A stretch of 61,987 nucleotides of DNA, counting the filler, from Stramenopiles sp. TOSAG23-2 (Eukaryota), in assembly GCA_900128395.1 (NCBI GenBank). It is 22 parts of 22 records of this genome, joined end to end, with 100 filler letters (N's around TTAATTAATTAA, not from the genome) between each part and the next. Parts side by side here need not be neighbours in the genome. Positions count along the whole stretch, not along the records: positions 11,348 to 14,076 come from LT651557.1; positions 14,177 to 16,904 come from LT651558.1; positions 17,005 to 19,732 come from LT651559.1; positions 19,833 to 22,559 come from LT651560.1; positions 22,660 to 25,385 come from LT651561.1; positions 25,486 to 28,211 come from LT651562.1; 16 more parts are not named here. One strand, 5' to 3'. The notes beneath the pieces were generated by a model. That model was given only the letters and a program-made list of their open reading frames with translations, did no database searches and had not been told where the DNA came from. The position numbers and the translations under genes are program-made. Each line of letters starts with the position of its first letter. Position 1 is the first letter of the stretch. Positions 11,238 through 50,450 of this stretch are shown piece after piece.

Positions 11238-11823
11238 TGTAATTAATNNNNNNNNNNNNNNNNNNNNNNNNNNNNNNNNNNNNNNNNNNNNTTAATTAAT
11301 TAANNNNNNNNNNNNNNNNNNNNNNNNNNNNNNNNNNNNNNNNNNNNTTTGGATTTTTTGAAGGTTTTGAGTAGTTTATAGTATTCTAATTTCCACTTTC
11401 AACTATAAATTATCATCATTTGATAGGTAAAATGAAGGGTTTTTGTACTTAAAACATAAATAGTAGTTACATGATAGCATGAAAAATTTCCTGAAACACC
11501 ACATTTACTCTGAACAAAAAAAGAAAAAAATCTTTTGTCGCCACTCTGGTATCCATTTAATTAGGCTGTAATAGCACCCAATTTTGGATGTACATTTACA
11601 TATATATATAGATTCACAAATAGATTAAAAATAAAAAATATGATAATACATACAGACTGATAAAAAAATGATGTACAACAAGGTATATGATATTTTTAGC
11701 TGTGCCCTCTTCACTTTTTAAGATCACATTATTATATATTTAGATATTTTACTTGAGGGCACACACAATCACTTGTTAAATATATACAATATATATATAT
11801 ATATATATATATACTTATAAATT

Positions 11824-12876
11824 ATGGCATCATTAACCACGAATCAACCACCTACAAAACGACAACGTACAACAAATGAATCGACCTTGGAAGCGTTACA
11901 ACAAGAACGGGCACCACCACCAATTGAAATTGGTATATTGCTTTTACCAGCTGGATTTGAGTCTGCTTGCGGTATAATGACAAAAATATTTCTATATTTA
12001 GATATTCGATCATTATGTAATGTGAAACGATCTTCTTTAATACAACAATGTAGAAAAGCATTTGGATGTGATGATTTTGAACGTGTACGTGATGAAGCAT
12101 TGAGTCTTGATTATAAAGGTAGAAGAAGTATAGATGAGATGATACTTTCACATTCAGCGAGACGACTTTATTTATTTATTGAAAGATATAAAAGAGAGTT
12201 TCCACGTGGTACNNNNNNNNNNNNNNNNNNNNNNNNNNNNNNNNNNNNNNNNNNNNNNNNNNNNNNNNNNNNNNNNNNNNNNNNNNNNNNNNNNNNNNNN
12301 NNNNNNNNNNNNNNNNNNNNNNNNNNNNNNNATGCAATACCAACACCTAACGTATGTGCATGTGAACGCGGACGTATGGATGATGTAGAATTATTTATGA
12401 ATCTTCATACTTATCACAAGTATATTACTAATTGTGATGTGAATGGCTACAGAGATGATATGACATTGAAAGATATGGTGAGTCAAGTCGGTAAAGCTAG
12501 TGATGGTTATGAATGTACACCTTTAATAGCAGCTGCAAGGAACGAACATTTCCACGTAGTTAAATATTTAATTGAACAAGGTGAAGCTGATCCTAATATT
12601 GCAAATAGTGATGGATGGAATGCATTACATTATGCAGCATGTCATAACAGAACGAATACTGAGTTGATTGAATTGTTATTAACTCATATGACTCTTAATA
12701 GCATTAATAAGAAGACCAGGCTGGGATCCACTCCCCTGGACTGGGCATATCAATGTAATCATAGTCCAATTCGCCAAGAGATGATTGCACTTTTACGTTT
12801 AAAAGGTGGAAAAGCAAATCGTCATGATGAAAATGGTAGAAGAGTAGGAGAAGGTAATGGTGATTTAAATCATTAA
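11824..12876 (+). CDS. F-box-like + ankyrin-repeat protein, type A, copy 1 (internal N gap 12213-12331)
   Basis: IMTKIFLYLDIRSLCNV resembles an F-box; ankyrin motifs TPLIAAA, NALHYAA, TPLDWA. Confidence 0.8.
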   Translation: MASLTTNQPPTKRQRTTNESTLEALQQERAPPPIEIGILLLPAGFESACGIMTKIFLYLDIRSLCNVKRSSLIQQCRKAFGCDDFERVRDEALSLDYKGRRSIDEMILSHSARRLYLFIERYKREFPRGXXXXXXXXXXXXXXXXXXXXXXXXXXXXXXXXXXXXXXXXXAIPTPNVCACERGRMDDVELFMNLHTYHKYITNCDVNGYRDDMTLKDMVSQVGKASDGYECTPLIAAARNEHFHVVKYLIEQGEADPNIANSDGWNALHYAACHNRTNTELIELLLTHMTLNSINKKTRLGSTPLDWAYQCNHSPIRQEMIALLRLKGGKANRHDENGRRVGEGNGDLNH

Positions 12877-13211
12877 AACATGTTCTACCGACTGTTATAT
12901 ATAGGATGTTTATACGATATGTAATATTGAAATATATATCTATAAGCACAAAGTGTTGAGAGCATCTTTTTACTTTTTGTGAACTGGGAATCTCTCTTTA
13001 AAAGTATTAATAAAACTAATAATATATTTTCTATTTTTTATTTAATGTTGAATTGCGTGTCAATCATCAATATTTCAGGTTGTGTTTTCATTCATTCATT
13101 ATTTATTTGAATGAACTAAGATTTATGAATAAATAAGAAAGGACGAAGAGATAGAAAATATATATACAATATATATATATATATACAAAATATATATATA
13201 TATATACAACC

Positions 13212-14076
13212 ATGGCATCTTTAACCACTAACCAACCACCTACAAAACGACAACGTACCACAAATGAATCCACGTTGGAAGCGTTACAACAAGAACGGGC
13301 ACCACCACCAATTGAAATTGGTATATTGCTTTTACCAGCTGGATTTGAGTCTGCTTGCGGTATAATGACAAAAATATTTCTATATTTAGATATTCGATCA
13401 TTATGTAATGTGAAACGATCTTCTTTAATACAACAATGTAGAAAAGCATTTGGATGTGATGATTTTGAGCGTGTACGTGATGAAGCATTGAGTATTGATT
13501 ATAAAGGTAGAAGAAGTATAGATGAGATAAGACTTTCACATCCAGCGAGAAGACTTTATTTATTAATTGAAAGATATAAAAGAGAATTTTAGTAAAAATT
13601 CAATTTTATATATAAATATATATTTAAATGATGATATATTCTAATTTAATATTTATCGAGAAGACTTTATTTATTAATTGAAAGATATAAAAGAGAGTTT
13701 CCACGTGGTACACCTATCGTATGTGCATGTGAACATGGACGTATGGATGATGTAGAATTATTTATGAATCTTCATCCTTTTCACAAGTATATTACTAATC
13801 GTGATGTGAATGGCTACAGAGATGATATGACATTGAAAGATATGGTGAGTCAAGTCGGTAGAGATAGTGGTGGTTATGAATGTACACCTTTAATGGCAGC
13901 TGCAGAGAACGAAGATTTCCAACTAGTTCAATATTTATTTGAACAAGGTGAAGCTGATCCTAATATTGCAAATAGTGGTGGATATAATGCATTACATATA
14001 GCAACACGTATTAACAGTACAAATACTGAGTTGATTGAATTGTTATTAGCTCATATGACTCTTGATAGCATTAATA
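13212..14076 (+). pseudogene. F-box-like + ankyrin-repeat protein, type A, copy 2; interrupted by a local duplication/insertion with stop at 13590-13592, 3' truncated by scaffold end
   Basis: Near-identical to 11824..12876; cgagaagactttatttattaattgaaagatataaaagaga occurs at ~13546 and ~13658. Confidence 0.75.
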
Positions 14077-14776
14077 NNNNNNNNNNNNNNNNNNNNNNNN
14101 NNNNNNNNNNNNNNNNNNNNTTAATTAATTAANNNNNNNNNNNNNNNNNNNNNNNNNNNNNNNNNNNNNNNNNNNNTTGTTGCAAATGTTTCTTTGTTGC
14201 TAATTTGTAGGATGAAATGATTTGTTTCTATGTTCATATATATTAATGAATCAGTAGTTTTACATATATGTATTTATATGATGTGTGGTGTTATGTTCGA
14301 TCTTCACCACAGCAGGTATACAGTACAGTAGCTAAAGATAGCTTCAATAATTAGTCCGGGTGTGATATAGCAGGTGCAGTAGTACCAGGTAGTCGTCTAT
14401 TAAACACTGGCCCACTAATATACTGCTGTACTAATATTGTTGGGTCTATCATCATCAATTTTTTAATTCTTTTTTGGTTTTTGCTACTACCTTTGCTAAT
14501 ACTGTCCTCTGTAGCATAGCTCTAGCCCAGCTGGGCCAGCTAGGTCGAAACGATACTTGTGGCCATGCTATAATGCTACTATTCGGAGCGTAATTTATAT
14601 ACAACATCAATGATGATTATTACTTTTTGTATGGCTATTATATGAATAAATATTATACAATGTACACATTGCATTTGAATAAGTGATGTGTGTGTATATA
14701 TATACAGTCGTCTGTAAAATAAAATGGAAAATATATTTAATCATAAAAATCACACGAGCATTCGTAATCAAAGAAA

Positions 14777-15482
14777 ATGGAAATACAACCGAAGGTGAAT
14801 GATACGAAGAAAAAAGAAAAAAAGCGCAATTCATTAATTGATGATGAAAAATCCAATTGGAATCCGCTAGTTTTTCCTAATTATAAAGCAGATGTGGTAT
14901 ATAATAATAATAACAACAACAACAACAACAATACAATACATGTGAATCAAGAGGATCAGGGTGTAAATGTTTTCAGCAATGACACTGTAAGTTTTGATAC
15001 TGGTAGAAAACGAGGCAAAGCGAAAACAAAAGGAAAAATACAAGAAAATGCAAATAATCGTGGTCGATCATCGTCCGCAAACATACGTCGCCTTGGCTCA
15101 GTCATTGGTGAACAAGCTACAGGAAATATTAAATTTAATAATTTTTCGATTCAAATTAGAATCTATATGGAATTATTGTTCGACAAGATCGGTTATTTCA
15201 TTGCTAAATTTAAAATGCTACAGATAGTTTTATTATTATCTATAATAACTGTATGCGTTTATTATACGACGCAGTTAAGAAAAGGGAAAATAGAGACATC
15301 TATACCAAAATTATGGATTGAAAGTGGCGGGAGTTGTTGTTAAATATTTTTTCTTACCATTTTTTTTGGTTGTGATCATTGGGTTGTTAAACGGTTTGGT
15401 CTTTTTGCCAGTTTTATTATCATTAATTGGTCCAAGCGCGTTAGGATGTTGTCGTATTGAGAAAGATCAATCAAATGAGTAG
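14777..15482 (+). pseudogene. Patched-family (RND/SSD) gene reduced to N-terminus/TM1 joined out of frame to the last TM helix
   Basis: ELLFDKIGYFI...KIETSIPKLWIESGG is followed in the +1 frame from 15333 by VVVKYFFLPFFLVVIIGLLNGLVFLPVLLSLIGP...NE*; these match the post-TM1 and TM12 signatures of Patched. Confidence 0.75.
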
Positions 15483-15651
15483 GAGGAGACCTAGAGATTA
15501 ATTGGAATTATTGTACATTCGAACTTAAAGCTTTAGTTACTAAGTTTGCATTTGGTTCCTAGTCAGGTTGGCGTCAGACGACTATGTAGTATACTGGCAA
15601 TTTCAAAAGGTAAAAAACCTTATATCCTATTACCTGTAAATTATAGTTCTA

Positions 15652-15906
15652 TTGACCTGCTGTAAAATGTAAAATAAGACTAGACTCTAGCTATAATATT
15701 ATACTCAAGGAAAAGCAATATCTAAAACCTGGCGGCTTAGGCTAAGTTAAAATTCCAGATTCGTGTGCATTGCTGGATTTGACCTGCTGTAAAATGTAAA
15801 ATAAGACTAGACTCTAGCTATAATATTATACTCAAGGAAAAGCAATATCTAAAACCTGGCGGCTTAGGCTAAGTTAAAATTCCAGATTCGTGTGCATTGC
15901 TGGATT
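15652..15906. repeat. Exact tandem duplication, period 127 nt
   Basis: gacctgctgtaaaatg... starts at 15654 and 15781; both copies end tgcattgctggatt. Confidence 0.95.
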
Positions 15907-16138
15907 GCCATTCGCACATTCGCACATTCCGCTACGATTTTTTGCAGCTTGGCAAGTAGCCAAGTTCACGATCGTATACATAAATCCATGTTTGTTGATG
16001 ATGATAATAATAGAGGTGGAAAATTAAAAATGGAAGATTTTGGGTATAGAACTACATTTAATTAAAAAATGTATATATACATATATATGACGTATAACGT
16101 ATATTATATGTATTTTGACATATTATATTATATTGATT

Positions 16139-16798
16139 TTATATTGTCGAGTGAAGTGAAGATGGTACATTTCCTTTACTTGGACTTCGTCTTCTTCTAT
16201 TTGGAGATGGTGATCCCTTTTTTCTTCTAGTTTTTGATGGAGAATCAGTTATGTTATTATGTTTTTTGCCATTATTATTTTTATTAGCAGCTGCATTGCT
16301 TAAAATTTCAGAATCACGACGTTTATAATTTTCTTCTTCATGTTTCCTATCCAATTCGTATCTTGCTATACGCAATAATTCGATAAAAACATCAAAATCA
16401 GCAGTTGCCATCAGTATTTTAATAAATACAGCACACTCGCCATTTTCATGATTTAACATAAATCGTCTTGCTGCTTGCGTAAATTGTTCTTGTTTAATAG
16501 TTTCTGAAGCTAAATATTCATTGACTTTATCTTCTATTAGTTTTTTGAATTTATCATGTAGACTAGTATGTTGTAATATGTATTCTTCATCATGAGGATC
16601 ATAATCATACGCATGTTTTTCTGCAAACTTATTAATCGTTTTAGTCAGATCTTGTGATTTAGTAAACCATGTTTTTAAATTTTGTATGATCTGAAGCTCA
16701 TGATCCGAGGATACTGCTTTCGTTCGTTTCGATATCGAATTTTGTTGTAATTTTTTTCCAGGCATTTTTTTGTTACAATACCATATACTCGATTTCAC
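16139..16798 (-). CDS. BART/ARL2-binding domain protein (CFAP36/ARL2BP-like)
   Basis: FAEKHAYDYDP..EEY.LQHTSLHDKFKKLIEDKVNEYL and ILMATADFDVFIELLR; start codon uncertain. Confidence 0.75.
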   Translation of the reverse strand: MKSSIWYCNKKMPGKKLQQNSISKRTKAVSSDHELQIIQNLKTWFTKSQDLTKTINKFAEKHAYDYDPHDEEYILQHTSLHDKFKKLIEDKVNEYLASETIKQEQFTQAARRFMLNHENGECAVFIKILMATADFDVFIELLRIARYELDRKHEEENYKRRDSEILSNAAANKNNNGKKHNNITDSPSKTRRKKGSPSPNRRRRSPSKGNVPSSLHSTI

Positions 16799-17388
16799 CT
16801 ATTTATATATATCACAATTTATACTCTAGCAGATGAAGTTTTCACATCTAGTGTAATCAGATAAGGACCAACGCCATTGGTACGATAATACAGGAGCTCG
16901 ATGANNNNNNNNNNNNNNNNNNNNNNNNNNNNNNNNNNNNNNNNNNNNTTAATTAATTAANNNNNNNNNNNNNNNNNNNNNNNNNNNNNNNNNNNNNNNN
17001 NNNNAATATAATAGAGAAAACCAATGAAGGTAAATAGATGGTATCAACTACTCGTAGCAGTTGTGAAATATATTTAAAAATGTAAAACCATAAATTGATG
17101 GTTAAAATCTAAAGTTTTATACTAAAATATATAATATTTTAATATAATAATTTTACTTCCCGTGCTAAGTAATATGCTCATATTATATATATAATATATT
17201 ATATATATTATAGCTGTCCAATACATCATTATATCTAAAATTTTACGAAGTAATTATTTCGTAGTTCTTTACTGTCATCCTCCCGGAAACAATATATCTT
17301 TCATTTATAAAATTGTTTTTTATGATATACATTTGTTTTTCATTTTCATCGTTATGATATTTATTTTTTTTGTATAATATTCTCTATT

Positions 17389-18352
17389 TTACAATGATGA
17401 TTTTCCTCCACCATGCATCTTATTAATACTTTGATGTACTTGATCTAAATTTAACCTTTTTTTAGTTTCATTTTCAATTTCAAACCATTGTTCACCATGT
17501 TCGTTCTCATGTCTCTCCATAATATTTAAACTACCATTTGTAGGATTATATGTTTCTTCAAAATCGTCTACACTATATTGAAACCATCTCATTAAAAACA
17601 ATCTAATTGCAAGACCATGTGTGACAATAACAATATTCATATTTTGAAGATCAACTTTACTATTTCTCATTTGTGCTGAATCACGAAACAATGTAGAAAT
17701 AAACGAAGTTGTCCCTGTGGAGAAAAAGGCATGAAAGAATGATGCGTTAGTGAGGATATTTATACATATATCTATATAAAAGTTTAACGAAAATTGAATT
17801 TTACTTACTGGAATATACATCTAAACCGCTTTCTCCATTTGGAAATCGAAAAAAGAATCTTCCAAACTTCTATGCTTTTCGAACCTCATCGACATTTTGG
17901 AAATTACCAAATTGTTGCTCTGCTATTCTTGGTTCTTCACGAACCCCCCAAATTTGATTTTTGGAAAAATGACTTTGTATTTGTTCCAAGGTTTCTATCG
18001 TCCTTTTGTATGGGCTGACGTAGAAAAAAATTGACTCGTCATCCTTCAATAACTCTCGTAGTTTTTTCCCAGCATATTGTGCTTGATCCTTTCCCTTTTG
18101 CGTAAGCCGAATTTGCCAATCTGCCGTATTTACATATGCACTCTCATCTACATTTCCCTCGCTCTCCCCATGCCTTATCAAGATGATTCTTTTGGCTCTA
18201 TGTATATGTCTTCGAAATGTATGGGTGTTTTTCTGCTTTATTTTAATATTGAAATCACTTATATTCTGATTATTACTAACAATATGTCTATTCAAGATAA
18301 TACCATTATTTTTACGCATCGTCAAAGTAAAAGAAACAATTTTGCGTGCCAT
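17389..18352 (-). pseudogene. Histidine phosphatase / phosphoglycerate-mutase-like protein (Det1-like), one intron (17715-17808), in-frame TAG at 17870-17872
   Basis: IILIRHGESEGN, FYVSPYKRT, EEPRIAEQQFGNFQ, KFGRFFFRFPNGESGLDVYS|R, IVTHGLAIRLFLMRWF; GTAAGT...CTAAC...CACAG intron restores the frame. Confidence 0.8.
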
Positions 18353-19179
18353 ACTTTATTTAGCACCTTTACTCGTTCGTTTTTATTCTTTTTTTCTCTG
18401 GGATTTTCTGTAGAATTTGCTCCCAGTGCCTAATTCTACTAATAGATTAATATATTTCATTTTTAAGATCCACGGCGTATAATAATATACCAGGTAAAAA
18501 ATAATATGGAAAGAAGAAGTGGAAACCATCAGCAGGAAGAAAGCTGGAAAGCTGGAAAGCCAAAAACGTAAAATAATGTACCAATTGTATAATAAATCCT
18601 AAAATATAAATAGGGTATTATTTAAGAAGTACAATATTTAGTATTCTAATCTATACATTTATACCACTTTAACAATTATATTTCTACAGTACTTTTCAGT
18701 TTATAATGAAAAACATGTGTTTTGTCAGAGAGAGTTCTCTCTGGTTTTGTTGTTGAAAATGGTAAGATAGAAATGAATTAAAGTGTCAATACTAGAGNNN
18801 NNNNNNNNNNNNNNNNNNNNNNNNNNNNNNNNNNNNNNNNNNNNNNNNNNNNNNNNNNNNNNNNNNNNNNNNNNNNNNNNNNNNNNNNNNNNNNNNNNNN
18901 NNNNNNNNNNNNNNNNNCTGACGACGTAGACTAGCTCAATACTCTATCCCAGAAATAATAGTCAATCCTACTTCGTACTATATATAGTACGTAAAGCTCT
19001 AATGCATGTTTATTAATTTCTGTTAAATGAAAAAAAAGATATGTACTCTTCCTGTTCGCATTATCATGTTAAACTACACATATACACGCACAAAATTTTT
19101 TGATCAACAGAAAGTGAAACGGCAGATAAAACCAATCAAGATTATAAAAATTACAATATATTTCAAAAAAAACAAAAGG

Positions 19180-19732
19180 TCAAGAGGTACTTGATAAGGA
19201 TTGGATATACTTAATTTTTGCCACAATTTCCGCTGCGTCTTCTGGCTCTTCCGTCTCATATGTCAGTGATGTATTGCCTTCTTTATATGTAATAGAAAAT
19301 ACACAAGGAGAATTTCCATCTATTTCAACATTTGCAACATCAGAAATATTTCTTTCCCTTCGTTTAACATCTCTTGATGGTCGATTTTCCGAACGATTAC
19401 TATCAGCTTTTTTATTTGTAATTTTTGTCAATGATAATCCTAACCAACGGCGTTGTTTCATTCCCCATTTATTAGTTTTCATTACTTGCCATTCTTTGTA
19501 TTCAGCAGCTGTTAAAGGATTAAAAATAAACGTTTTCTTTGTTTGTTGCTGTGATCCATCTGAGGAGGAACGCCTCGAAGATGTGCCACGGCGCTGAAGG
19601 GAGTGCGGTTTACTGAGAGATTTGCGATTGGAAAATCGATCATCTTCTAATTCATCATTTCCCATATCTGCAAATCGTTTTTTTTGAAGCCTGATAGTTC
19701 TGATACTACCTAATGCTTGTAGCTTACAAGAC
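19180..19732 (-). CDS. C-terminal PH-like domain protein (SIN1/Avo1-PH-like), 5' partial
   Basis: YKEWQVMKTNKWGMKQRRWLGL...YETEEPEDAAEIVAKIKYI. Confidence 0.55.
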
Positions 19733-19832
19733 NNNNNNNNNNNNNNNNNNNNNNNNNNNNNNNNNNNNNNNNNNNNTTAATTAATTAANNNNNNNNNNNN
19801 NNNNNNNNNNNNNNNNNNNNNNNNNNNNNNNN

Positions 19833-20258
19833 TTAAGTTTAGGTGCATCTGGTGTATGGGTTGGTACAAGATTTGTGTGCGCAGAGGAAGCTGGTGCACC
19901 ACCTTTGCATCAAAAAACTGTAATGAATACCACATCAGAAGGTACAGCACGTACCATCATTTTCAGTGGTCGTCCATTACGTGGAGGAATGACTGATTAT
20001 GTCAGGGATTGGGAAGATAACCGACAAGAAGAAATCAAAGACTTGACAACTAAAGGAATTTTACCAGCATTTCATGATCAGCAAAAAGCAGAGAAAGAAG
20101 GCAATCCTTTGCCATTAACGACTACAAGATACTGGTTAATGGGACAAGGTGCTGGTGCAGTGAATGATGTTAAACCAGCAAAAGAAATCATTAATGAAAT
20201 GATTGATGGTGCAATTAATATCATGCGTCATAATGTTAGTATCGTATCAAGAATTTAA
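19833..20258 (+). CDS. Nitronate monooxygenase / 2-nitropropane dioxygenase family, C-terminal part
   Basis: LGASGVWVGTRFV, FSGRPLR, LMGQGAGAVNDVKPAKEII. Confidence 0.88.
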   Translation, partial: LSLGASGVWVGTRFVCAEEAGAPPLHQKTVMNTTSEGTARTIIFSGRPLRGGMTDYVRDWEDNRQEEIKDLTTKGILPAFHDQQKAEKEGNPLPLTTTRYWLMGQGAGAVNDVKPAKEIINEMIDGAINIMRHNVSIVSRI

Positions 20259-21346
20259 AAAAGAAAAGTGTGTGTAAAAGTGGTTATACACGAGAGGAAT
20301 TTAATTTCTTTTTTTTTTTTAAATAAATAATTGTGGTGTATATTTCTATGCAAAGAAATTATATGTATTAAAAGAGTACATGAGAGAGCGAAGGAGGAAA
20401 AGGTAAAACTAGTGTTCGATTTACGATGCGTACAAGTATCATCATTATTATAATGGAATGAACTCTCACATTTTTAAAAATTAGTAGTGTTACAAAGCAC
20501 AATTCATGAGACACAGAGAGAGTACACATGTACGTATATTTTATATATAAAAAATTCTCTTATTTATAATTTAAAGATTTTATTTACTCATATTGTATAT
20601 ATATATGTATGGAATTACCAGAAAAAAATATATATATCATATCAGAAAATTTTAAATGGGGCACAGATTTTTACAAAAAATACAAAAACGTATATATTTG
20701 TGTGTGTCATTGTGCGCTGTGAATAATCTAACAATCTAAAATATTAATATAGTACGGGGGTAGACTCTATATATTAACATTATTATTTTTCAAGTGGAGC
20801 AATGTATCTTTTCTCGCTTCAAATATATAAGTACACCTACAATCTATACAATATGTGAGTTTATTTTTTTTCGGCCTCTATCGATATACTCTGGGGGTAC
20901 TCCAGTACTCAAATTCTCAAAAATGCCCGTAATAAATTTTTCAAATTTAAAAAAATTATGATAGTGAACATTAAAATTACTACAGTACACTAAACTATAT
21001 ACTTTGCATGGTTTGTACGTTATGCCTTATGCCTTACCAGGCTTACCACCGGTGGTATGCCTTTCAATTTATTACTCAGGTAAAGTATTATTATTGCACA
21101 CCTGGCACACACTGGCACACCAGCACACAAATCAGTGCTAAAATCTTACATATATGTGATATACTGTATTAAGCTGAGAGACAAGTATGTATACATATGC
21201 AATTGTTAGAAAATATATATGATCCAAATCATATTGTACTTGTAAACATTTGCTAATCTTTTTTAATTAAGATTTAATTGTTCGCAGCAGCAAGTGAATA
21301 TACCGTAATTGATATATACATATATTAATTAATTTTTACTTCAAAC

Positions 21347-22559
21347 ATGTTGAGTTCAAGTAAAGAGAAATTTACACAACATGAACTTCGTAAAGATACA
21401 AAGAACTTTCATATGATGACATGGCAAAAAAGTGTTAACTCTGAGACGTTCCATGTACGAGCTGGAATGTATTTGGATGCTAGGGAAGATAAGCATGAAG
21501 TGAATGCTGTACGTAAAATAAAGCGCACTCTTTCACGGCGGGGAACTCACATGATAAATAAATCAGCAAATTGTGGAACAAATTGTTTAAAATGTCTGTG
21601 TACGAAAGGTAAATATAAAGTGCTACCAGAAAATAATGAAACTACTTTATTCCCTTTCCTAAAGAAATCAAACGAAGATACCCCAACTTTAAAACTAAAA
21701 CCCACAGGGAGCACATTTAACACGTGTTATATAACATCGGTTGGTTATAACAAGAAAGAATATATGTTAAATGTCGTTAAACCTGACGACGAAACTATAA
21801 AAGATAGGTATAAGTTTTTTTTGATAGATGATAATAAAAATAACAACAATCGCGAATCACAGACGTTTGAAGATAAATTTGATGAAAAATTTGAAGCGTT
21901 TAAAAAAAGTTTGAATGCCAGGAATGGGGACAAACGTCAAAATATGGCATGTAAAGAAATTTTTTTAAGCTTTGTTACGGATAAAAAAATTATGTATTTT
22001 GGTCGCGCATATAAGCAAGCAATTAGATCGCTTTACGAGGAATGTATTGAAAAATTTTGTGAACAAGTAGAAGGTGAGAATAGTAAAATCGATAAATGCA
22101 CGAAAATCGAAAAATGCAAGAGTAGGATCAAATGTTGGATCAAGTATGCACCAACTTTAAAATTTCAAGCCCTAAAGGATAGTAAGGACAATAATACAGA
22201 GCCATCACAATGGAAAGTCTGTATTGAAAACGGAAAACATTCACGTGCCGTATTTCAATATCACAACCCACCAAATAGTAATGTTAATAGTAAGAATGGA
22301 AAAAATGCCAAGGCAGAGAAAGTGCAAACAGGAACAGAAGAAGAGAAGAAAGAGCTAACTGAGATAGAAAAAGAAATGGAAATCCTAAAAGAAATAGAAA
22401 AAGAAATGGAAATCCTAGAAAATGAAAGTTTCGATGGTCATTATCTATTTGCACGAATTCCGTTGACGGAAAATTTACTGAAAGGTGGAGATCCACTGAA
22501 AGGTTTACCCCCATTATATTTAAATCCAGGGTCTTTACGTAATGAGCATACTACCACAA
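21347..22559 (+). CDS. Hypothetical protein, 3' truncated
   Basis: Over 400 open codons in AT-rich DNA; short internal repeat EIEKEMEIL x2; no family recognised. Confidence 0.55.
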
Positions 22560-22659
22560 NNNNNNNNNNNNNNNNNNNNNNNNNNNNNNNNNNNNNNNNN
22601 NNNTTAATTAATTAANNNNNNNNNNNNNNNNNNNNNNNNNNNNNNNNNNNNNNNNNNNN

Positions 22660-25219
22660 AGTTGGTAATGATAATAATAACAACAACAACAACAATAATA
22701 TAATCATTGGTGCGAGTAAAGGCGGTTTATCTTCCTATGGATTGACAATATTAATTGCTTCCTTTTTTATACAACATATGAAACCATCATCGTCATCATC
22801 GTCAAAAAATAACAACAACAACAACAACTCGCGTCCAGCATGTTCAATACAACATCCGTTTGATGCATTTATATTGTTTTTAGATTTTTATCAAAAATTT
22901 GATTGGAGTAATTATAGTGTCTCCATGTATGGCCCTGTACCATTGCATAATAATGCCATGGCCAACTCGCAACAACAACAACAAAAAGGACAAGCAACAC
23001 GCCAACGGGTATTTCAATCAAAGTTAGCATTTGCATTGAAAAATAGGGCATTGGATGGTAGTTTGATAGTTAAACAGACACACGATAGCCAACAAATGAA
23101 AAATCAAAAGGCACAATCATTACAATATATGATGTCAAATGTTCATGAAAAATTTTCAATACGATCATGCAATATCCTTGATCCATTTGATATGACTAAT
23201 AATTTAGGGCGTAGTATGAATTTACAATCTTTTCAACGAATGAAAAATATGTTTACAAACGGGCATCGATGTATTATGGAAATATTATCGTCTGCAAATA
23301 AACATGATAATTCTATTATTGTGAATAATATATTATTTCACGTTATTAATAAAACATTTGGACGTGGTGATGGTTGGCGACCGGATTTGTTAACACACCC
23401 ATGTCAAAAATGGTACAATAATATTGACAATAATAAAAATAGAAGAAATGGCGTTGATAAAAATATTGCAAATGTTTCTACCTGTGATAATAGTGATGGA
23501 AGAAAAAGCGATTCAATTGCTGTTACCGCTAATATTGATGTTGAATTGAAACATGATGTAAATGATGGCATGGAGATGGATCAAAAGTTATTGCAACGTT
23601 CAATATCTAGATTAAAGAAAATTGTACCGTCCCCTCCAGTAATTGCATCATCGAAGAAATCAAAATTAATATCAAAACGAAAACAAGCATCGAAAAAAGT
23701 GAAAATAAATATAGCAAAGAAGAAGAAAACAATTATAAATACACGTACAACAGTAGAAATGATTAATAAGAACAATAATACACCAACTACATCTGCTACT
23801 TTCATCTCTTCTCCTGTGAATGATACAACTAATAGTAGCAAAAAATTAAACAGTAAAGATCATTCAAAAGCTGTTGCAACAACAACAACAAGAACAAACG
23901 TATACTTGAAAACACTTTTTTATATCATATTTGGATATTTAGCATTAGCACAAATACGACAAGAAATCGTCAATTTAACAACAATGTGGACGGCATCATC
24001 CATAACGCCAGAAACGCGAAGAGCAGAAAGAATGAGATCGATATCAAATCAATACTCTTATCCTTCTTACAATCATCAACGACAACAGTCAACATCACCA
24101 CCATCACCACCTCCTGATTCAATTTATAATGATTTAGATTTAAATTCTGAATATATTATGATGGAGCAAGATTTGCAAATACAACAAAAGTATCATATAA
24201 ATTCAGTAAATATGATTCATACGTATAATGTCAATAATTACCATTTAAATAATAATAATATGGAAAAAGTGGAAGGAGAGACGGGTTCTATTGGTAATGC
24301 GAACGACGAGGAAAATAATAACAACAATAATAATAACCACCAAAAATTAGCGCAAAATATACATAATTTATATGTATTAAACAATTTAAAGCGTATAATT
24401 GCTGAGCAACAAGCACGTATAAGTGTTGGTTCGGATTATGTACCTGGTCGTGGTGATAATAATATGAATGAACATATAAAGATTACACAAAGTGATAACA
24501 ACAACAACAATAATAATAATAATAATAACGATGGTACCAATGAAGATAAAAACACAGATAACAATTTAGCTGATTTGCCCGAAGTGTATTCAACATATTC
24601 CAATCAATGGGTATCAACTGGTTCGCAAGTTATATTTAAAGTTAATGTAAGATGGCCCACTACAAATATGAATCAACAACTATATTTTCAATGGCGTCGT
24701 AATGGTGTTGATATTCCAGGAGCCGTTGGGCATTTAATGATATTAAATGCTGTAACCATTAAAGATGAAGGTACATATACATGTGCAGTTAGCAATGAAA
24801 AAGGAAATACAGTTATATGGGAAGAATCTGTTTTACATGTTGCATCGCCACCTAAAGTGAAATTAGAATTTGTAAAAGTCGTCGTACAAAAAGGTGATAG
24901 CGTTAGTTTGTCTGTAAATTTATTATCTGGTACACCACGTCCGAAATTTCAATGGAGAATTAATGGTGTTGATATACCAGGTGCTATCTCTGAAACGTAC
25001 ACCGTTTTGTCCGCGAATCCAAATGATGTTGGTACATATACATGCATGGTTGCAAATTTAGCAGGTAGCGTCGTATGGGAAGAAAATATATTATTATTAG
25101 AAGGTATAAATCCATTGACAAAGAAAGATTTACGAAGAAGCGATGGGGGTGGTGATGTGAAACCTCCAGCTAGTATTGATGTGAGGGTGGAGAAAGGCGA
25201 AGTGACAATTAATATATAA
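22660..25219 (+). CDS. Non-canonical poly(A) polymerase / PAP-OAS1 substrate-binding-domain nucleotidyltransferase (5' truncated) + TM + two Ig-like domains
   Basis: GGLSSYGLTIL, FLDFYQKFDW..YSVSMYGPVP, NILDPFDMTNNLGRS, GRGDGWRPD; TM LFYIIFGYLALA; Ig motifs FQWRRNGVDIPGA...DEGTYTCAVSN and FQWRINGVDIPGA...DVGTYTCMVAN. Confidence 0.75.
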
Positions 25220-25485
25220 TTTTGGAGAATTATATTCGTGTATCACATGAGGTTTAGGTTGTGTTATGGAAATCATCTGAAATGTGAAGTTTGAAATTTA
25301 GTAGCTAAATAGTATTACTTTTGAACTTTAGCATATAAATACCATTACAATCAGAACAAACATCGGATATTTTATTTTATCAGTTNNNNNNNNNNNNNNN
25401 NNNNNNNNNNNNNNNNNNNNNNNNNNNNNTTAATTAATTAANNNNNNNNNNNNNNNNNNNNNNNNNNNNNNNNNNNNNNNNNNNN

Positions 25486-26157
25486 GTTAAATCTATATTA
25501 AAAATGAGTGAGTCTTGTTTAGTGAAAAATTTAGGACATAGAAGTTTTAATGAGTGTGTAAGTGAAGTGATAAGTAAACCAAAACAGTTGTTCGAGCTAT
25601 ATCAAAGGTATGGAAATGAGTTTGAAGGGAGGTCGGCATTGATATGCGCATGTGAACACGGACGTATGAATGATGTGTTATTATTTGTAAATTTACATCG
25701 TTTTCATAAATATATTGAGATGAACGGTGTGAAAGAAGGTAATATGACATTGAAAGAAATGGTGAATCAAGTCGGTAGAAATAGTTGGGGTGGTGAATAT
25801 ACACCTTTAATGATAGCTGCAAGGAACGAACATTTCCAAGTAGTTGAATATTTAATTGAACAAGGTGAAGCTGATCCTAATATTGCAAATAGTTATGGAT
25901 CGAATGCATTACATTCTGCAGCATTTAATAACAGAACGAGTACTGAGTTGATTCAGCTCTTGTTAAATCATATGACTCTTGCTAGCATTAATAAGAGGTC
26001 GGGGGGATTCACTCCCCTGGACAGGGCATATTATTATAATCGTAGTCCAATTAAACAAGAGATCATTGCGCTTATACGTTCAAAAGGTGGAAAAGCAAAT
26101 TGTTTTGATGAAAATGGTAGAGATGTAGGAGCAGGTAATGGTGATTTAAATCATTAA
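25486..26157 (+). CDS. F-box-like + ankyrin-repeat protein, type B, copy 3 (5' truncated)
   Basis: TPLMIAA, NALHSAA, TPLDRA; paralog of 26874..27665. Confidence 0.8.
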   Translation, partial: VKSILKMSESCLVKNLGHRSFNECVSEVISKPKQLFELYQRYGNEFEGRSALICACEHGRMNDVLLFVNLHRFHKYIEMNGVKEGNMTLKEMVNQVGRNSWGGEYTPLMIAARNEHFQVVEYLIEQGEADPNIANSYGSNALHSAAFNNRTSTELIQLLLNHMTLASINKRSGGFTPLDRAYYYNRSPIKQEIIALIRSKGGKANCFDENGRDVGAGNGDLNH

Positions 26158-26600
26158 AAAAACAATCATAGGAAGACGTCCAGAATGAAAGAGTTGTTTG
26201 CATATAGAGAGATGTACGTCGTCTATCTAATTCGCATCACTTCACTTCATTGTCAATTGAATATCAAATATAAATTCCATTACGTAGATCACAAGAAGGA
26301 TGAGATGGGAGCAAACGGAGATTGAGGAGAGACTGAGTGGTGAAAATATATATTGGTACGGCGCGTGGTATTACCAAAAATTTGAAAACTAAAAATAGAA
26401 ATTAAGACAACAATATATATATATTTTTTCTTTCTTTCTTAATACACACACTTGACACAAAAGCTTTTTCGAATGCCGTCGTTGTCTCTATTTTTACATC
26501 TCTTGTCGTTGTTCCTTTGAATTTGAACTAAAAATATATAAAATAGAATAGAATAATGTTGAACCATAGATAACACAATAAATATATATATATATACAAG

Positions 26601-26831
26601 ATGGCGTCAAGAAATACAAAACAACTGAAAGAGGTGAAGGACGATGACGATGATGAAATTAAAAACATATACGATGTATGTGGTATACCAGGTTTGTTTA
26701 AAAATATTTTAAAATTTTTAAAAGTTAAATCTATATTAAAATTGAGTGAGTCTTGTTTAGTGAAAAATTTAGGACATGCAAGTTTTAATGAGTGTGTAAG
26801 TGAAGTCTTCTTTTTCTGTGATGGAACATAA
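26601..26831 (+). CDS. Truncated type B copy: acidic leader + F-box-like motif only
   Basis: Matches the N-terminus of 26874..27665 up to ECVSE, then diverges and stops. Confidence 0.6.
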   Translation: MASRNTKQLKEVKDDDDDEIKNIYDVCGIPGLFKNILKFLKVKSILKLSESCLVKNLGHASFNECVSEVFFFCDGT

Positions 26832-26833
26832 CA

Positions 26834-26869
<36 letters not shown>

Positions 26870-26873
26870 CAAC

Positions 26874-27665
26874 ATGGCATCCATCACAGAAAAAGAAGAT
26901 AAAGTGGACGACGGTGAGGATGAAATTAAAAACATATACGATATATGTGGTATACCAGGTTTGTTTAAAAATATTTTAAAATTTTTAAAAGTTAAATCTA
27001 TATTAAAATTGAGTGAGTCTTGTTTAGTGAAAAATTTAGGACATGCAAGTTTTAATGAGTGTGTAAGTGAAGCGATAAGTAGACCAAGGCAGTTGTATGA
27101 GCTATATCGAAGATATGAAAATGAGTTTGAAGGGAGGACAGCATTGATATGTGCATGTCAACACGGACGTATGAATGATGTGTTATTATTTGTAAATTTA
27201 CATGGTTTTCATAAATATATTGAGATGAACGGCGTGAAAGAAGGTAATATGACATTGAAAGAAATGGTGAATCAAGTCGGTAAAGATAGTCGTGGTTATG
27301 AATATACACCTTTAATTGCAGCTGCAAGGAACGAACATTTCCAAATAGTTGAATATTTGATTGAACAAGGTGAAGCTGATCCTAATATTGCAAATACAAA
27401 TGGATTTAATGCATTACATTGTGCAGCATGTAATAACAGAACGAATACTGAGTTGATTGAATTGTTACTAACTCATATGACTCTTACTAGCATTAATAAG
27501 AAGGACAGGTGGGGATTCACTCCCCTGGACGCTGCATATATTCATAATCATAGTCCAATTCGCCAAGAGATCATTGCACTTATACGTTCAAAAAGCGGAA
27601 AAGCAAATTTGCATGATGAAAATGGTAGAAATGTAGGAGAAGGTAATGGTGATTTAAATGATTAA
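26874..27665 (+). CDS. F-box-like + ankyrin-repeat protein, type B, copy 4 (complete)
   Basis: IPGLFKNILKFLKVKSILKLSESC F-box-like; TALICAC, TPLIAAA, NALHCAA, TPLDAA ankyrin motifs. Confidence 0.82.
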   Translation: MASITEKEDKVDDGEDEIKNIYDICGIPGLFKNILKFLKVKSILKLSESCLVKNLGHASFNECVSEAISRPRQLYELYRRYENEFEGRTALICACQHGRMNDVLLFVNLHGFHKYIEMNGVKEGNMTLKEMVNQVGKDSRGYEYTPLIAAARNEHFQIVEYLIEQGEADPNIANTNGFNALHCAACNNRTNTELIELLLTHMTLTSINKKDRWGFTPLDAAYIHNHSPIRQEIIALIRSKSGKANLHDENGRNVGEGNGDLND

Positions 27666-28108
27666 CAATACAATCATAGGAAGACGTCCAGAATGAAAGA
27701 GTTGTTTGCATAGCGAGAGATGTCGTCTATCTAATTCGCATCACTTCAATTCATTGTGTCAAATTGAATATCAAATATAAATTCCATTACAAATAGATCA
27801 AGAAGGATGAGATGGGAGCAAACGGAGATTGAGAGAGACTGAGTGGTGAAAATATATATGGTACGGCGCGTGGTGTTACCAAAAATTTGAAAACTAAAAA
27901 TAGAAATTAAGACAACAATATATTTTTTTTTACTTTCTTCTTTTCTTATACACACACTTGACACAAAAGCTTTTTCGAATGCCGTCGTTTTGTCTCTATT
28001 TTTACATCTCTTGTCGTTGTTCCTTTGAATTTGAACTAAAAATATATAAAATAGAATAGAATAATGTTGAACCATAGATAACACAATAAATATATATATA
28101 TATACAAG

Positions 28109-28211
28109 ATGGCGTCAAGAAATACAAAACAACGGAAAGAGGTGAAGGACGATGACGATGATGAAATTAAAAACATATACGATATATGTGGTATACCAGG
28201 TTTGTTTAAAA
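28109..28211 (+). CDS. Start of a further type B copy, cut by scaffold end
   Basis: MASRNTKQRKEVKDDDDDEIKNIYDICGIPGLFK, 1508 nt after the ATG at 26601. Confidence 0.7.
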
Positions 28212-48455: not shown

Positions 48456-50450
48456 ATGGATAGCAGTGCGATTGAAATCATAGAGAATCCATTACATAAT
48501 GAAAAATCTGGCAACGGCACGGATTACGAACCTACCCACATGATTGAAGTGTCAGTAAATAGCAAAGAAATTGCACGTGTTGTATTGGATAACTTATCGT
48601 GTAAACATTTTGGTTTGATTGGCTTTGCAACGCTGCTTACGATGCTCTTGGTCAGCGCTGTTCATTTAGTTATTTTTTTTGTTTACGCTGGTTTAGGATT
48701 TGAAAAAAATAGTAGACCTATGATATGGATATTTCTTTTATTTTCCATCCTATATTTCCTACGTTTTCTGCATATCACAATTACTTGGAAAGATACCCTG
48801 AAGGAATCAGTTGAAGCGAAATATTCCCTCGGCGAATCTGAAAGCACAACAGAAGTAACATTCGTATCCAGAATGAAAGCAAGGTATAAAAATATGACCG
48901 CATACTACGACGATAATTTCGATATCAATGGGAAATACTACCTCTGGTTATTGTACATAGGGGAACTCATGGAGAGTTTGGTTCAGTTTACGAATATTCT
49001 TGTAGTCTATTCTTGTACGTTGTCTGTTGGATGGAATCTAGTATTTATATTTATCTTGATAGCAGAATCGTTGAATCGTTGCAAGGTCTTCTATAGAAAA
49101 GTGTGCGGCGAGATGCCTAATATTGATTTCAACGAACGCAATGTTCAACTAATTCTGGATATTGAAATGGATGTGTTCTTCTTATTCGTACCATTAGCCA
49201 TCCTGTGGTTTGTTTTTCAAATCCCAATGTCGATTTCAGAAATTGTACGAATTATTACCGTTCCATCCATATCACTATTCTTAAAACTACCAACGGTTAT
49301 CGAGCAAGTCGTGTACAATCGGGTGAACGAACAGATTACGGCACAACAGGATAATGCATCAAAATCGGTTAAGCGTAAACGGAAATCATTATTTGGGCAA
49401 TCTGTGAATGAGCACGTTGTAGATCTACAAAATAGATACTTTCCACGTTCCGCAAAGATGGTGATGTTTTTCTTGAGCTTGATCTATGTTTTGATATTGG
49501 TTGTTATGACGATTGTTCAATTAGCAAATTTATCCTTGTTAGAGACCTGTGATGCAATATTAGATAGTAAAAACATATGGAACAAAGGATGCATAAATAA
49601 AATTCCATATTGCAAAAGTGCGTTCGTTCCGAAATGTAATTGTGCTTCATTAAACATTAAAAATGATCCAACATTGACATATTTACCAAATGTAATGGTG
49701 GGTGAAATGGATGGGTTGAGAAAGGTCTCGATTAAAAATTGTAATCTTACGACATTACCAGCGAATATGGAACGATGGACAGAAATGGTTGATTTTGAAG
49801 TTCCATTTAATCGTTTGGATGCGTTTGATGTAGATGTTAGTAAATGGAAGAAATTAGTAAGGCTGATGTTGATGTATAATAACATAAAAAAGTATAACGA
49901 AAAAGCTTTATGGACACATCCTAATCTAGTAAGTTTAGTTGTAAATGATAATATTGGATTAGATATGCCAGGCTCAAACATACCCATTAAAATGCAATCA
50001 TTGCAATATTTTAGCAATAGTAATAATACTGTAGATGTTCATCTAAATTTCGACAAAATTAAATTTCCAAATCTGATGTTTTTATATTTGAGAGGCAATA
50101 ATTTAAAAATATTTCCGGATGAATCGTTAAAATATCAGTTGCGGGATTTAGGTATTGCAAGGTGCAAATTGTTAGTGCTTCCATCCTATCTATCCGATTT
50201 TACAAAGCTGCAGTATTTAGACACTAGAGATAATAATATTACGCAAGTTGATGATAATTTGAAAGTATTAATCAAAAAGAACGGAGTGGAGTCGTACTTT
50301 TCTGGAAATCCTGTTTGTCAAAACGACGAAGAACTAGATTGCCAACCGTTATGTTCAAAATATTGTTGGAGTAGAAATGTTGGGGGTGATGGATATTGTG
50401 ATGAATTTTGTAATTCAGAGAAATGTCAATATGATGGTGGAGATTGCTGA
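48456..50450 (+). CDS. Multi-TM protein with C-terminal leucine-rich repeats and an LNR (Notch-type) module
   Basis: About seven hydrophobic segments; Cys cap CINKIPYC...CNC; LRRs (LMFLYLRGNNL, LQYLDTRDNNI); GNPVC; GDGYCDEFCNSEKCQYDGGDC. Confidence 0.8.
   Translation: MDSSAIEIIENPLHNEKSGNGTDYEPTHMIEVSVNSKEIARVVLDNLSCKHFGLIGFATLLTMLLVSAVHLVIFFVYAGLGFEKNSRPMIWIFLLFSILYFLRFLHITITWKDTLKESVEAKYSLGESESTTEVTFVSRMKARYKNMTAYYDDNFDINGKYYLWLLYIGELMESLVQFTNILVVYSCTLSVGWNLVFIFILIAESLNRCKVFYRKVCGEMPNIDFNERNVQLILDIEMDVFFLFVPLAILWFVFQIPMSISEIVRIITVPSISLFLKLPTVIEQVVYNRVNEQITAQQDNASKSVKRKRKSLFGQSVNEHVVDLQNRYFPRSAKMVMFFLSLIYVLILVVMTIVQLANLSLLETCDAILDSKNIWNKGCINKIPYCKSAFVPKCNCASLNIKNDPTLTYLPNVMVGEMDGLRKVSIKNCNLTTLPANMERWTEMVDFEVPFNRLDAFDVDVSKWKKLVRLMLMYNNIKKYNEKALWTHPNLVSLVVNDNIGLDMPGSNIPIKMQSLQYFSNSNNTVDVHLNFDKIKFPNLMFLYLRGNNLKIFPDESLKYQLRDLGIARCKLLVLPSYLSDFTKLQYLDTRDNNITQVDDNLKVLIKKNGVESYFSGNPVCQNDEELDCQPLCSKYCWSRNVGGDGYCDEFCNSEKCQYDGGDC

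Follow-up and report, generated by a model that had tools for sequence, protein, structure and literature searches.

Site-specific hypervariability on the binding face of a tandem family of DARPin-like ankyrin genes from a marine protist, with a candidate F-box-like N-terminal module

In designed ankyrin repeat proteins (DARPins), each repeat is randomised at six positions, the residues named in the available portion of the source being 46, 48, 56, 57, 78, 79, 81 and 89 (PMC3602593). In fungal NOD-like receptors, the ankyrin, TPR and WD repeats show high internal conservation with positive selection at few concave-face codons (inner helices and hairpin), and concerted evolution reshuffles these repeats within and between family members, according to the accessible sections of PMC4986451. 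Nematode and plant F-box adaptor families are described, in the parts of PMC8120010 and other sources that could be consulted, as large and tandemly clustered, with a substrate-binding part under strong positive selection and a proposed immune role. Here we report the analysis of a family of ankyrin genes found in a 61,987-base stretch of DNA (the window) from Stramenopiles sp. TOSAG23-2 (GCA_900128395.1), four copies of which (A to D) had been picked out from the sequence alone as F-box-like/ankyrin paralogues with near-invariant framework DNA and codons varying on the binding surface (the original prediction). That observation of hypervariable ankyrin copies was confirmed, and the binding-face codons were found to evolve several-fold faster than silent and intergenic sites; the interpretation placed upon it, an array of ubiquitin-ligase adaptors under diversifying selection, was partly supported as a whole.

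The family protein is 250-310 residues long and consists of a constant N-terminal helical module, four ankyrin repeats (repeats 0 to 3) and a C-terminal hairpin tail. The four window copies lie, as claimed, on two separate scaffolds, the contigs at 11348-14076 and 25486-28211, which are separated by four other contigs; the count of four held for the ankyrin domains, only D being a complete gene, with A gapped, B interrupted and cut, and C cut. The ankyrin identity was borne out by Pfam matches with expectation values (E) of 1e-17 to 1e-21 on the window copies (for A, C and D, Ank_2 at 71.8-76.1 bits against a cut-off of 27.3 and Ank at 61-70 bits against a cut-off of 21.1) and by structure comparison. 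A model of gene D computed with AlphaFold2 (AF2) from an alignment of 54 sequences, with a predicted local distance difference test score (pLDDT) of 84.3 and a predicted TM-score (pTM) of 0.77, contains paired helices in each repeat, and a Foldseek search with it returned 399 matches at E<=0.001, headed by DARPins and consensus ankyrins (1n0r, root-mean-square deviation 2.6 over 154 columns). In the model, residues 1-18 are disordered and are followed by short helices within 21-55 and a long helix at 58-85; repeat 0 is formed by helices 90-96 and 100-108, and repeats 1-3 have inner helices at 146-152, 180-187 and 217-224 and outer helices at 156-164, 193-201 and 230-239. The C-terminal hairpin tail is predicted with a pLDDT of 91-94 and beta bridges at 247 and 253. 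The repeat register was set by alignment to ankyrin-1 chains, in which, for example, NGFNALHCAA falls on NGLNALHLAA. No NACHT or NB-ARC domain was found in the window copies or the best 120 relatives, for which Pfam gave ankyrin families only, and on direct reading no signal peptide or other secretion signal was evident in the N-termini, which are charged and hydrophilic.

Variability was assessed in an alignment of 95 proteins, comprising D and 94 relatives of 240-320 residues out of the best 120. Twenty-three hypervariable columns were identified, with entropies of 2.3-3.6 bits and 8-17 residue types each, the framework columns being invariant or nearly so. In D numbering these columns are 140, 142, 144, 149, 152 and 153 in repeat 1, 174, 176, 178, 183, 186 and 187 in repeat 2, 211, 212, 213, 215, 220, 223, 224 and 226 in repeat 3, and 246, 253 and 256 in the tail (entropies of 3.1, 3.5 and 2.8 bits). 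Placed on the AF2 model, all 23 sites fall in the hairpins, the inner helices or the turn that follows them, or the tail hairpin, and none falls in the outer helices, whose surface residues are exposed yet conserved. For comparison with designed libraries an a-priori set was fixed in advance, consisting of the DARPin-randomised positions 2, 3, 5, 13, 14 and 33 of each repeat (18 positions). Position 33 is included as reportedly randomised by Binz et al. in 2003. The other five fit the residue numbers given in the available portion of PMC3602593. Thirteen of the 18 were among the 23 hypervariable sites of the 133 codons compared (odds ratio 27, p=1.8e-8). Positions 3, 5, 13 and 14 were hypervariable in all three repeats (12/12), which upholds the claim that the variation lies on the hairpin and inner-helix face that is randomised in DARPins; positions 2 and 33 were hypervariable in 1/6 and are mostly conserved. 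The other ten of the 23 sites do not belong to the DARPin set; variation is found instead at positions 1 and 10 and, for repeat 3, at position 16. At the hypervariable sites Tyr (12.9%), Asn, Arg, Asp and Trp (6.9%) are abundant, compared with 2.5% Tyr and 0% Trp in the framework.

The residues originally quoted for the window copies were all recovered in the codon alignment: SDGY/SGGY/SWGG/SRGY in repeat 1, SDGW..YAACH / SGGY..IATRI / SYGS..SAAFN / TNGF..CAACN in repeat 2 and LDWAYQC / LDRAYYY / LDAAYIH in repeat 3. The accompanying claim of identity even at silent sites was likewise correct, codons 164-174 (GAA CAA GGT GAA GCT GAT CCT AAT ATT GCA AAT) and 179-182 (AAT GCA TTA CAT) being the same in all four copies.

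For estimation of evolutionary rates, a codon alignment of repeats 1-3 and the tail (133 codons) was built; 95 open reading frames (ORFs) covered the domain, of which 82 had at least 125 codons and 81 of these were unique. Among the 81 unique coding sequences, 79 distinct sets of binding-face residues were counted, and the two sets that occurred twice belong to pairs with 1/330 and 3/318 framework differences, which probably represent the same locus in two assemblies. In Nei-Gojobori comparisons of 3240 pairs, the 180 pairs with a proportion of synonymous differences (pS) below 0.05 gave a proportion of non-synonymous differences (pN) of 0.39 at the a-priori sites, against a pS of 0.037, corresponding to a ratio (omega) of 14.4; the a-priori omega was 1.16 at pS 0.4-0.5 and fell below 1 only from pS 0.5. 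At the remaining sites the pairwise omega fell from 2.7 to 0.34, values which reflect the ten hypervariable codons still among them. Parsimony on a nucleotide tree assigned 385 synonymous and 2316 non-synonymous changes, with an omega of 4.06 at the a-priori sites and 1.12 elsewhere. Maximum likelihood under the GY94 codon model with fixed topology yielded an omega of 7.04 at the 18 a-priori sites (twice the log-likelihood difference, 2dlnL, of 125.5 against omega=1), as compared with 1.04 over the remaining 115 codons and 0.66 (2dlnL 31) over the 105 that make up the framework; the ten additional hypervariable codons, a post hoc selection, gave 7.2. The predicted excess of non-synonymous change at the binding face was therefore found (omega 7.0; about 14 pairwise in the closest pairs). 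An omega at or below 1 at these sites, or variation spread evenly over the fold, had been named in advance as contrary to the prediction; omega was far above 1 and the variation was confined to the binding face.

Comparison with neighbouring non-coding DNA led to the same result. The adjacent units C and D are 89.7% identical in coding sequence and 95.0% identical in intergenic DNA; their hypervariable codons differ at 26/66 bases (39%) and their intergenic DNA at 22/437 (5%; Fisher p=3e-13), and the a-priori codons taken alone differ at 14/51 bases (p=2e-6 against intergenic DNA). In a near-identical two-gene segment shared by two metagenome loci (L017 and L042), hypervariable codons differ by 10.9%, as compared with 2.0% for the framework and 4.8% for the DNA between the genes (p=0.024 and 9e-6). 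Overall, the hypervariable codons diverge 2-8 times faster than the intergenic DNA of the same units. Across 69 pairs with a framework difference of <4%, 1105/1541 hypervariable codons differ, and in 603 of the 1541 two or three bases are changed, codon positions 1 and 2 accounting for most of the changes. Binding-face differences reach the level of random pairs (0.83) by 3-5% framework divergence, and in one pair 16/21 binding-face residues differ with only 6/330 differences in the framework. Two features of the data weigh against these rates, namely that the 81 sequences come from several assemblies and mix paralogues, alleles and orthologues, and that the tree-based omega values assume a single tree though recombination is likely; the pairwise, C-D, L017-L042, closest-pair and saturation comparisons are independent of any tree. 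Templated hypermutation, of the kind driven by diversity-generating retroelements (DGRs) or otherwise, was considered and rejected: at hypervariable codons all four bases vary, codon positions 1 and 2 vary alike, and no reverse transcriptase or mobile element was found among the 105 neighbouring ORFs scanned.

The uniformity of the framework extends across subfamilies whose N-terminal halves have otherwise diverged. At least five types of N-terminal half were distinguished, which share a loose motif only; A and B belong to type 1 and C and D to type 2, the two types being 35-41% identical at the protein level. The median base distance in the framework of repeats 1-3 is 0.097 between types 1 and 2 (385 pairs) and 0.094 and 0.099 within them, whereas in repeat 0 it is 0.296 between N-terminal types and 0.083-0.090 within; 17 sequences of other N-terminal types were omitted from this comparison. 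These distances suggest that a module of three repeats is made uniform, or is transplanted again and again, by gene conversion or recombination. The two types also occur in a common array: in one metagenome locus (L016) a type-2 gene comes next after a type-1 gene. When 30 intermediate pairs were tested for blockwise differences, three reached p<0.05, one of them at p=0.001, and one pair differs at 0/6 sites in repeat 1 and at 7/7 in repeat 3; this is at most suggestive of a blockwise exchange of binding-face words.

The N-terminal module was examined by several methods. Purifying selection was seen in 28 type-1 genes, with an omega of 0.18 for the F-box-like segment and of 0.43 for the linker together with repeat 0, and from this the module is concluded to be a constant, functional part of the protein. 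F-box-like and F-box were the Pfam families matched by most N-termini (9/33 and 6/33, with best E of 0.0032 and 0.058). An AF2 model of the N-terminal part (pLDDT 68) has helices at 27-37, 40-48 and 50-55 followed by the long linker helix, and in the Foldseek search with this model 10 of the first 13 rows were entries of F-box/Skp1 complexes (E 0.9-5.5), with two more lower down; these rows include beta-TrCP, FBXW11, FBXO22 and Legionella AnkB (5k35), and the alignments to beta-TrCP chains span 65-90 columns. In the ESM Atlas the best named cluster was an F-box cluster with a score of 0.80, and a wide fold search with VIA placed an FBXO42 entry eighth (Z 3.6), amid unrelated helical proteins. 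None of these leads reaches significance. All Pfam F-box matches lie below the cut-offs (12.2-13.1 bits against 20.5 and 24.3) and cover 19-21 residues; when 15 N-termini were scanned singly, a Pfam F-box match was obtained in two, both of type 1, and copy D had none. The Foldseek E-values are all >=0.9 and derive from a model of pLDDT 68, no VIA match reached Z>=5 (best 4.0), and an Atlas score of 0.80 is, by the tool's own account, attained by a third of shuffled proteins. A profile search of the PDB with the N-terminal alignment returned no F-box protein among its 10 hits (E 0.69-1.8), nine of which fell on the ankyrin part of repeat 0 and one on a de novo design. The F-box call, originally made by eye, thus gained leads from Pfam, Foldseek and the Atlas and fell short of the curated Pfam cut-off and of significance in Foldseek and VIA. 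We consider it somewhat more likely than not that the module is an F-box. The type-1 N-termini also carry a KRQR-like basic patch, which could serve localisation.

The window comprises about 22 contigs of about 2.8 kb each, spaced by linkers of N44 + ttaattaattaa + N44, and the family genes described here are all on its plus strand. The first family contig (11348-14076) holds a tandem pair of type-1 genes, A and B, with a unit spacing of about 1388 bp, evident as direct repeats at 11824-12123 / 13212-13511 (97% identical) and 12343-12642 / 13710-14009 (92%). Gene A (11824-12876; Pfam Ank_2 E 3.2e-21) contains an assembly gap of 119 N at 12213-12331. Its candidate F-box-like helical segment, residues 38-81 (LPAGFESACGIMTKIFLYLDIRSLCNVKRSS...), lies at 11935-12066 and includes a Pfam F-box-like match over residues 51-69 (E 0.11, 12.7 bits against a cut-off of 24.3). 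Gene B (13212-14076) is interrupted and breaks off after ankyrin repeat 2, where the contig ends; it is read in ORFs 13212-13592 and 13743-14132, and a tblastn search with gene A spans 13212-14075. The interruption is an in-frame insertion of 111 bp at 13586-13696, recognised by direct reading and from the 111-nt spacing of a repeat, and consists of about 71 bp of AT-rich filler with a TAG stop followed by a 40-bp duplicate of the preceding coding sequence. It may be either a pseudogene lesion or an artefact of assembly or amplification; its reading as an intron was rejected on direct inspection, as no GT-AG pair is compatible with the flanking 40-bp duplication.

The second family contig (25486-28211) carries a type-2 tandem array with a period of about 1508 bp (direct repeats at 1504-1508 spacing), made up of gene C, a gene fragment, gene D and the start of a further gene, E. 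Gene C (25486-26157; Pfam Ank_2 E 1.4e-20) has lost its 5' end at the contig start and matches D residues 40-262 by tblastn with 82% identity (25486-26151). The N-terminal-only fragment at 26601-26831 reads for 76 codons to a stop and duplicates the 5' part of D with 97% identity at an offset of 267 bp, seen as a direct repeat at 26639-26805 / 26906-27072 (97% identical) and by tblastn at 26655-26807 (96% identity to D residues 17-67). Gene D, the sole complete copy (26874-27665; 263 residues; Pfam Ank E 1.1e-19), comprises a candidate F-box-like three-helix segment (residues 20-56, 26931-27041; AF2 helices at 21-24, 27-35/37, 40-47/48 and 50-55, with F-box/Skp1 entries as best Foldseek rows at E 0.9-9), ankyrin repeat 0 (residues 89-120, 27138-27233; a sub-threshold Pfam Ank match over residues 82-111, with the two helices named above; particular to the N-terminal subfamily), ankyrin repeats 1-3 (residues 137-243, 27282-27602; register from ankyrin-1 and DARPin chains) and the conserved C-terminal tail (GGKAN x HDENGR x VG x GNGDLN, 27603-27662), which includes the hypervariable codons 246, 253 and 256. 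Of gene E the first 103 bases are present (28109-28211; direct reading, with tblastn at 28163-28210) and the contig end cuts the rest, the direct repeat 26482-26703 / 27990-28211 being 99% identical. A tblastn search of the window with D found the ankyrin domains of A and B at 12343-12870 (74%) and 13659-14075 (66%), besides D itself (26874-27662). A (TA)n-rich tract of about 30-50 bp was observed directly upstream of the ATG at every family gene start (11777-11823, 13155-13211, 26840-26873 and 28085-28108); it may be a shared core promoter or leader element.

The window contigs are AT-rich, with a G+C content of 27-40%. Their larger ORFs matched CRAL/TRIO, Rft1, papain-type protease, granulin, LNR/LRR and immunoglobulin domains and ribosomal protein S9, a domain content that identifies the source as a eukaryote; an Rfam scan of the whole window gave no match. 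The first contig (1-2739) is a perfect palindrome, with arms at 1-1347 and 1393-2739 that are 100% complementary around a 45-nt loop, so that a 293-residue CRAL/TRIO ORF is present twice (265-1146 on the minus strand and 1594-2475 on the plus strand); this contig looks like a hairpin chimera of whole-genome amplification. Several other ORFs were noted in passing. One of 825 residues at 22742-25219 has long poly-Asn and poly-Ser runs and C-terminal immunoglobulin-type domains (Ig_3 E 4e-17, I-set E 7e-13), which are unusual for a protist. Animal-like extracellular modules were also seen in an ORF with leucine-rich repeats and Notch/LNR (48456-50450; E 5e-7) and in a granulin-domain ORF on a neighbouring contig (52157-53371; E 6e-10). 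The minus-strand ORFs 17870-18352 and 17389-17820 appear by eye to be two halves of a histidine-phosphatase-type protein, with RHGESEGN in the upstream one, and a short intron or a frameshift may lie between them (17389-18352).

A protein database search with D gave 471 relatives at E<=1e-5 among 835 candidates, the best 120 of which (E<=6e-76, 51-88% identity) are drawn from ENA, JGI, NCBI, EukProt and Tara. When metagenome contigs were scanned, 151 relatives were confirmed and 77 loci retained, and many of these loci carry two or three family copies within 3 kb. IMG/VR viral contigs and GTDB genome contigs yielded pattern matches only (88 and 87), none of which was confirmed as a relative. 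In the loci, 105 of the 134 non-family ORFs of at least 150 residues were scanned; the neighbours include a TOR-type kinase, Vps35, tubulin, a TTC21/IFT protein, dynactin-5, a proteasome ATPase, ESCRT-II, a Rad23-like protein and SLX1, and are often single long ORFs. These neighbours place the family in the nuclear genome of an intron-poor, flagellated eukaryote, in the company of ordinary genes. Among the 105 neighbouring ORFs scanned there was neither a mobile element nor a reverse transcriptase nor a recurrent partner gene. Of the sampled words of gene D, 28-36% were found in marine metagenome runs and 21-24% in polyA/cDNA metatranscriptome runs. At a likeness of at least 85%, one RNA run from each of three studies contributed short contig pieces along gene D (58, 55 and 580). 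These fall chiefly on the coding part and are most numerous on the invariant segment 27344-27399; one DNA run also thinly covers the intergenic DNA around the gene. The RNA pieces are Logan contigs of family members, not of gene D itself, and may include DNA, so that they give a weak hint that the family is transcribed.

Some features of individual metagenome loci are recorded here. At L063:2230-3402, an N-terminal region of 391 residues precedes one family member and contains apparent degenerate copies of repeat 0 and repeat 1 (EFPG..ACEKG...MTNMVNQRGKDSNGDESTPLMAAGKNEHF), from which it follows that multi-cassette fusions exist; a relative of 454 residues (P0060) also reads as two cassettes within one protein. 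Beside family members, L040:1927-3093 and L045:5115-6785 encode proteins with 5-9 TPR_12/TPR_10 repeats (E 3e-83 and 1.5e-169), each adjoining a CS-domain protein; these may be another internally conserved repeat family. On two metagenome contigs, genes for a D12-class N6-adenine DNA methyltransferase (L055:3375-4298, E 5.5e-46) and a C-5 cytosine methylase (L061:33-1166, E 5e-30) lie <3 kb from family genes.

The explanation that we propose is a tandemly arrayed, fast-diversifying large gene family of a marine, intron-poor, flagellated eukaryote, in which each protein would join the constant N-terminal module to a rigid DARPin-like scaffold of four ankyrin repeats and hairpin tail. As almost every paralogue has its own set of residues at about 23 concave-face codons (at the hairpin tips, in the inner helices and in the tail), with a preference for Tyr, Trp, Arg, Asp and Asn, each gene would present a different binding surface. 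Recombination or gene conversion within mixed tandem arrays would keep the framework uniform, diversifying selection would act on target recognition, and the N-terminal module would most likely be an F-box-like adaptor that docks the binder on a Skp1/cullin ubiquitin ligase. The family would then be a repertoire of substrate receptors through which variable proteins, probably non-self ones of viral, parasitic or bacterial origin, would be marked for degradation. We hold this account, a diversifying binder family with an F-box-like ligase adaptor directed against probably non-self targets, with slightly better than even confidence; the antiviral or anti-symbiont immune role that had been put forward is reached by inference only. 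Two points tell against it beyond those given for the rates and the module. To our knowledge, no target, Skp1/cullin partner or infection-linked expression is known, and since the assembly holds artefacts of the amplification type, the insertion of gene B and the N-terminal fragment may be artefacts too.

The docking step is where the nearest alternative departs, in which the proteins are variable binders and not ligase adaptors, the N-terminal module serving localisation, oligomerisation or signalling and the targets being sequestered or blocked. That every F-box lead is sub-threshold, and that most of the five loosely related N-terminal types lack any Pfam F-box match, agrees with this alternative, which we nevertheless regard as unlikely: three independent weak methods (Pfam, Foldseek and the Atlas) converge on the F-box, the module is followed by a long linker helix and aligns with beta-TrCP over the 65-90 columns given above, and the purifying selection (omega 0.18) fits a docking domain, though it is not specific to F-boxes. 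An F-box could also belong to an offensive arsenal, with a parasite or predator delivering F-box/ankyrin proteins that hijack the ubiquitin system of host or prey and diversify as they track host targets. Pathogen ankyrin/F-box effectors are documented, as far as the available parts of the sources extend, and the order of F-box then ankyrin recurs in Legionella AnkB, whose Skp1 complex (5k35) is among the Foldseek rows; yet the N-termini show no evident secretion signal, the genes lie amid nuclear housekeeping genes of a flagellate and no relative was confirmed in IMG/VR or GTDB contigs, which makes this improbable.

Diversification could also be driven from within the species, by self/non-self or mating recognition in which the paralogues recognise variants of a polymorphic partner protein, much as the S-locus F-box genes of plants, also in tandem, and fungal allorecognition genes do. 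In plants, collaborative non-self recognition has its signature in arrays of tandem F-box paralogues that evolve under diversifying selection, and hypervariable ankyrin, TPR and WD repeats act in fungal allorecognition, both as described in the accessible portions of the sources (the latter PMC4986451), but no polymorphic partner locus was seen beside the arrays and the family is spread over many loci and not one; we give this role little chance, somewhat less than the offensive one. Lastly, there might be no adaptive diversification at all, the pattern arising from an unconstrained surface with gene conversion elsewhere, or from faulty assembly. The indications of concerted evolution in the framework of repeats 1-3 and the artefact-like palindromic contig lend themselves to such an account. 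Relaxed constraint, however, predicts an omega of about 1 and not 7, and would explain neither the excess over intergenic divergence nor the 603/1541 codons with two or three base changes in the closest pairs; moreover, the same pattern occurs in independent assemblies and data sources and the exposed residues of the outer helices are conserved. This last alternative is already contradicted and is very improbable.

A bolder form of the proposed explanation, a diversifying binder family with a ligase-docking module, is that abundant marine picoeukaryotes possess a germline intrabody repertoire, in which hundreds of DARPin-like binders joined to that module would provide a recognise-and-degrade intracellular immunity against viruses and parasites. 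We offer this tentatively, as rather less likely than not. Such a repertoire would be renewed by exchange of the shared three-repeat cassette among tandem genes, as hinted at by the blockwise differences and the homogenisation across subfamilies. If true, immune receptors of a new kind would be at hand, and with them binding scaffolds ready-made by nature. Should the proposed explanation itself hold, evolution would have arrived independently, in uncultured ocean protists, at the DARPin solution of a rigid ankyrin scaffold with a few randomised contact positions, joined here to a constant effector module. It would also supply a testable candidate for intracellular non-self recognition in organisms whose defences against viruses and parasites are almost unknown, and would extend the combination of constant scaffold, hypervariable contacts and concerted evolution beyond fungal NOD-like receptor repeats and nematode and plant F-box families. 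For protein engineering, it would make available hundreds of natural, presumably well-folding binders with a naturally validated choice of variable positions, namely 1, 3, 5, 10, 13 and 14 plus the tail hairpin. Such a family in marine protists was not found described in a literature search that did not extend to subscription journals or bioRxiv supplements.

Compared with DARPin libraries, the present family shares a near-invariant, consensus-like ankyrin scaffold with diversity limited to the concave face of hairpins and inner helices, but it is natural and germline-encoded and bears an N-terminal non-ankyrin module. Here positions 2 and 33 are mostly conserved and positions 1, 10 and 16 vary; in addition, repeat 1 has a hairpin longer by two residues, and the tail hairpin adds three variable sites. 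With the fungal NOD-like receptors, as described in the available sections of the source, the protist family has in common conserved repeats, positive selection on the concave face and concerted evolution; it differs in that the fungal proteins contain near-identical repeats within one protein together with NACHT or NB-ARC, whereas here three-repeat cassettes are shared between paralogues that lack a NOD domain, in a marine protist host. Positively selected F-box adaptor families were reportedly treated by Thomas in 2006. The nematode and plant families, as far as the accessible part of their description goes, are likewise large, tandemly clustered and positively selected in the binding part, and combine a confirmed F-box with FTH, FBA, MATH, LRR or Kelch domains, in contrast to the candidate F-box and ankyrin stack of the present family. 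Finally, Legionella AnkB, the Orientia Anks and poxvirus ankyrin/PRANC proteins resemble it, in the portions of the sources consulted, in uniting an F-box or F-box-like module with ankyrin repeats in a small protein, AnkB also with the F-box first. Those effectors, however, are injected or viral and occur as single genes or small sets, whereas the family described here belongs to the nuclear genome of a eukaryote, numbers hundreds of paralogues and is hypervariable at specific sites.

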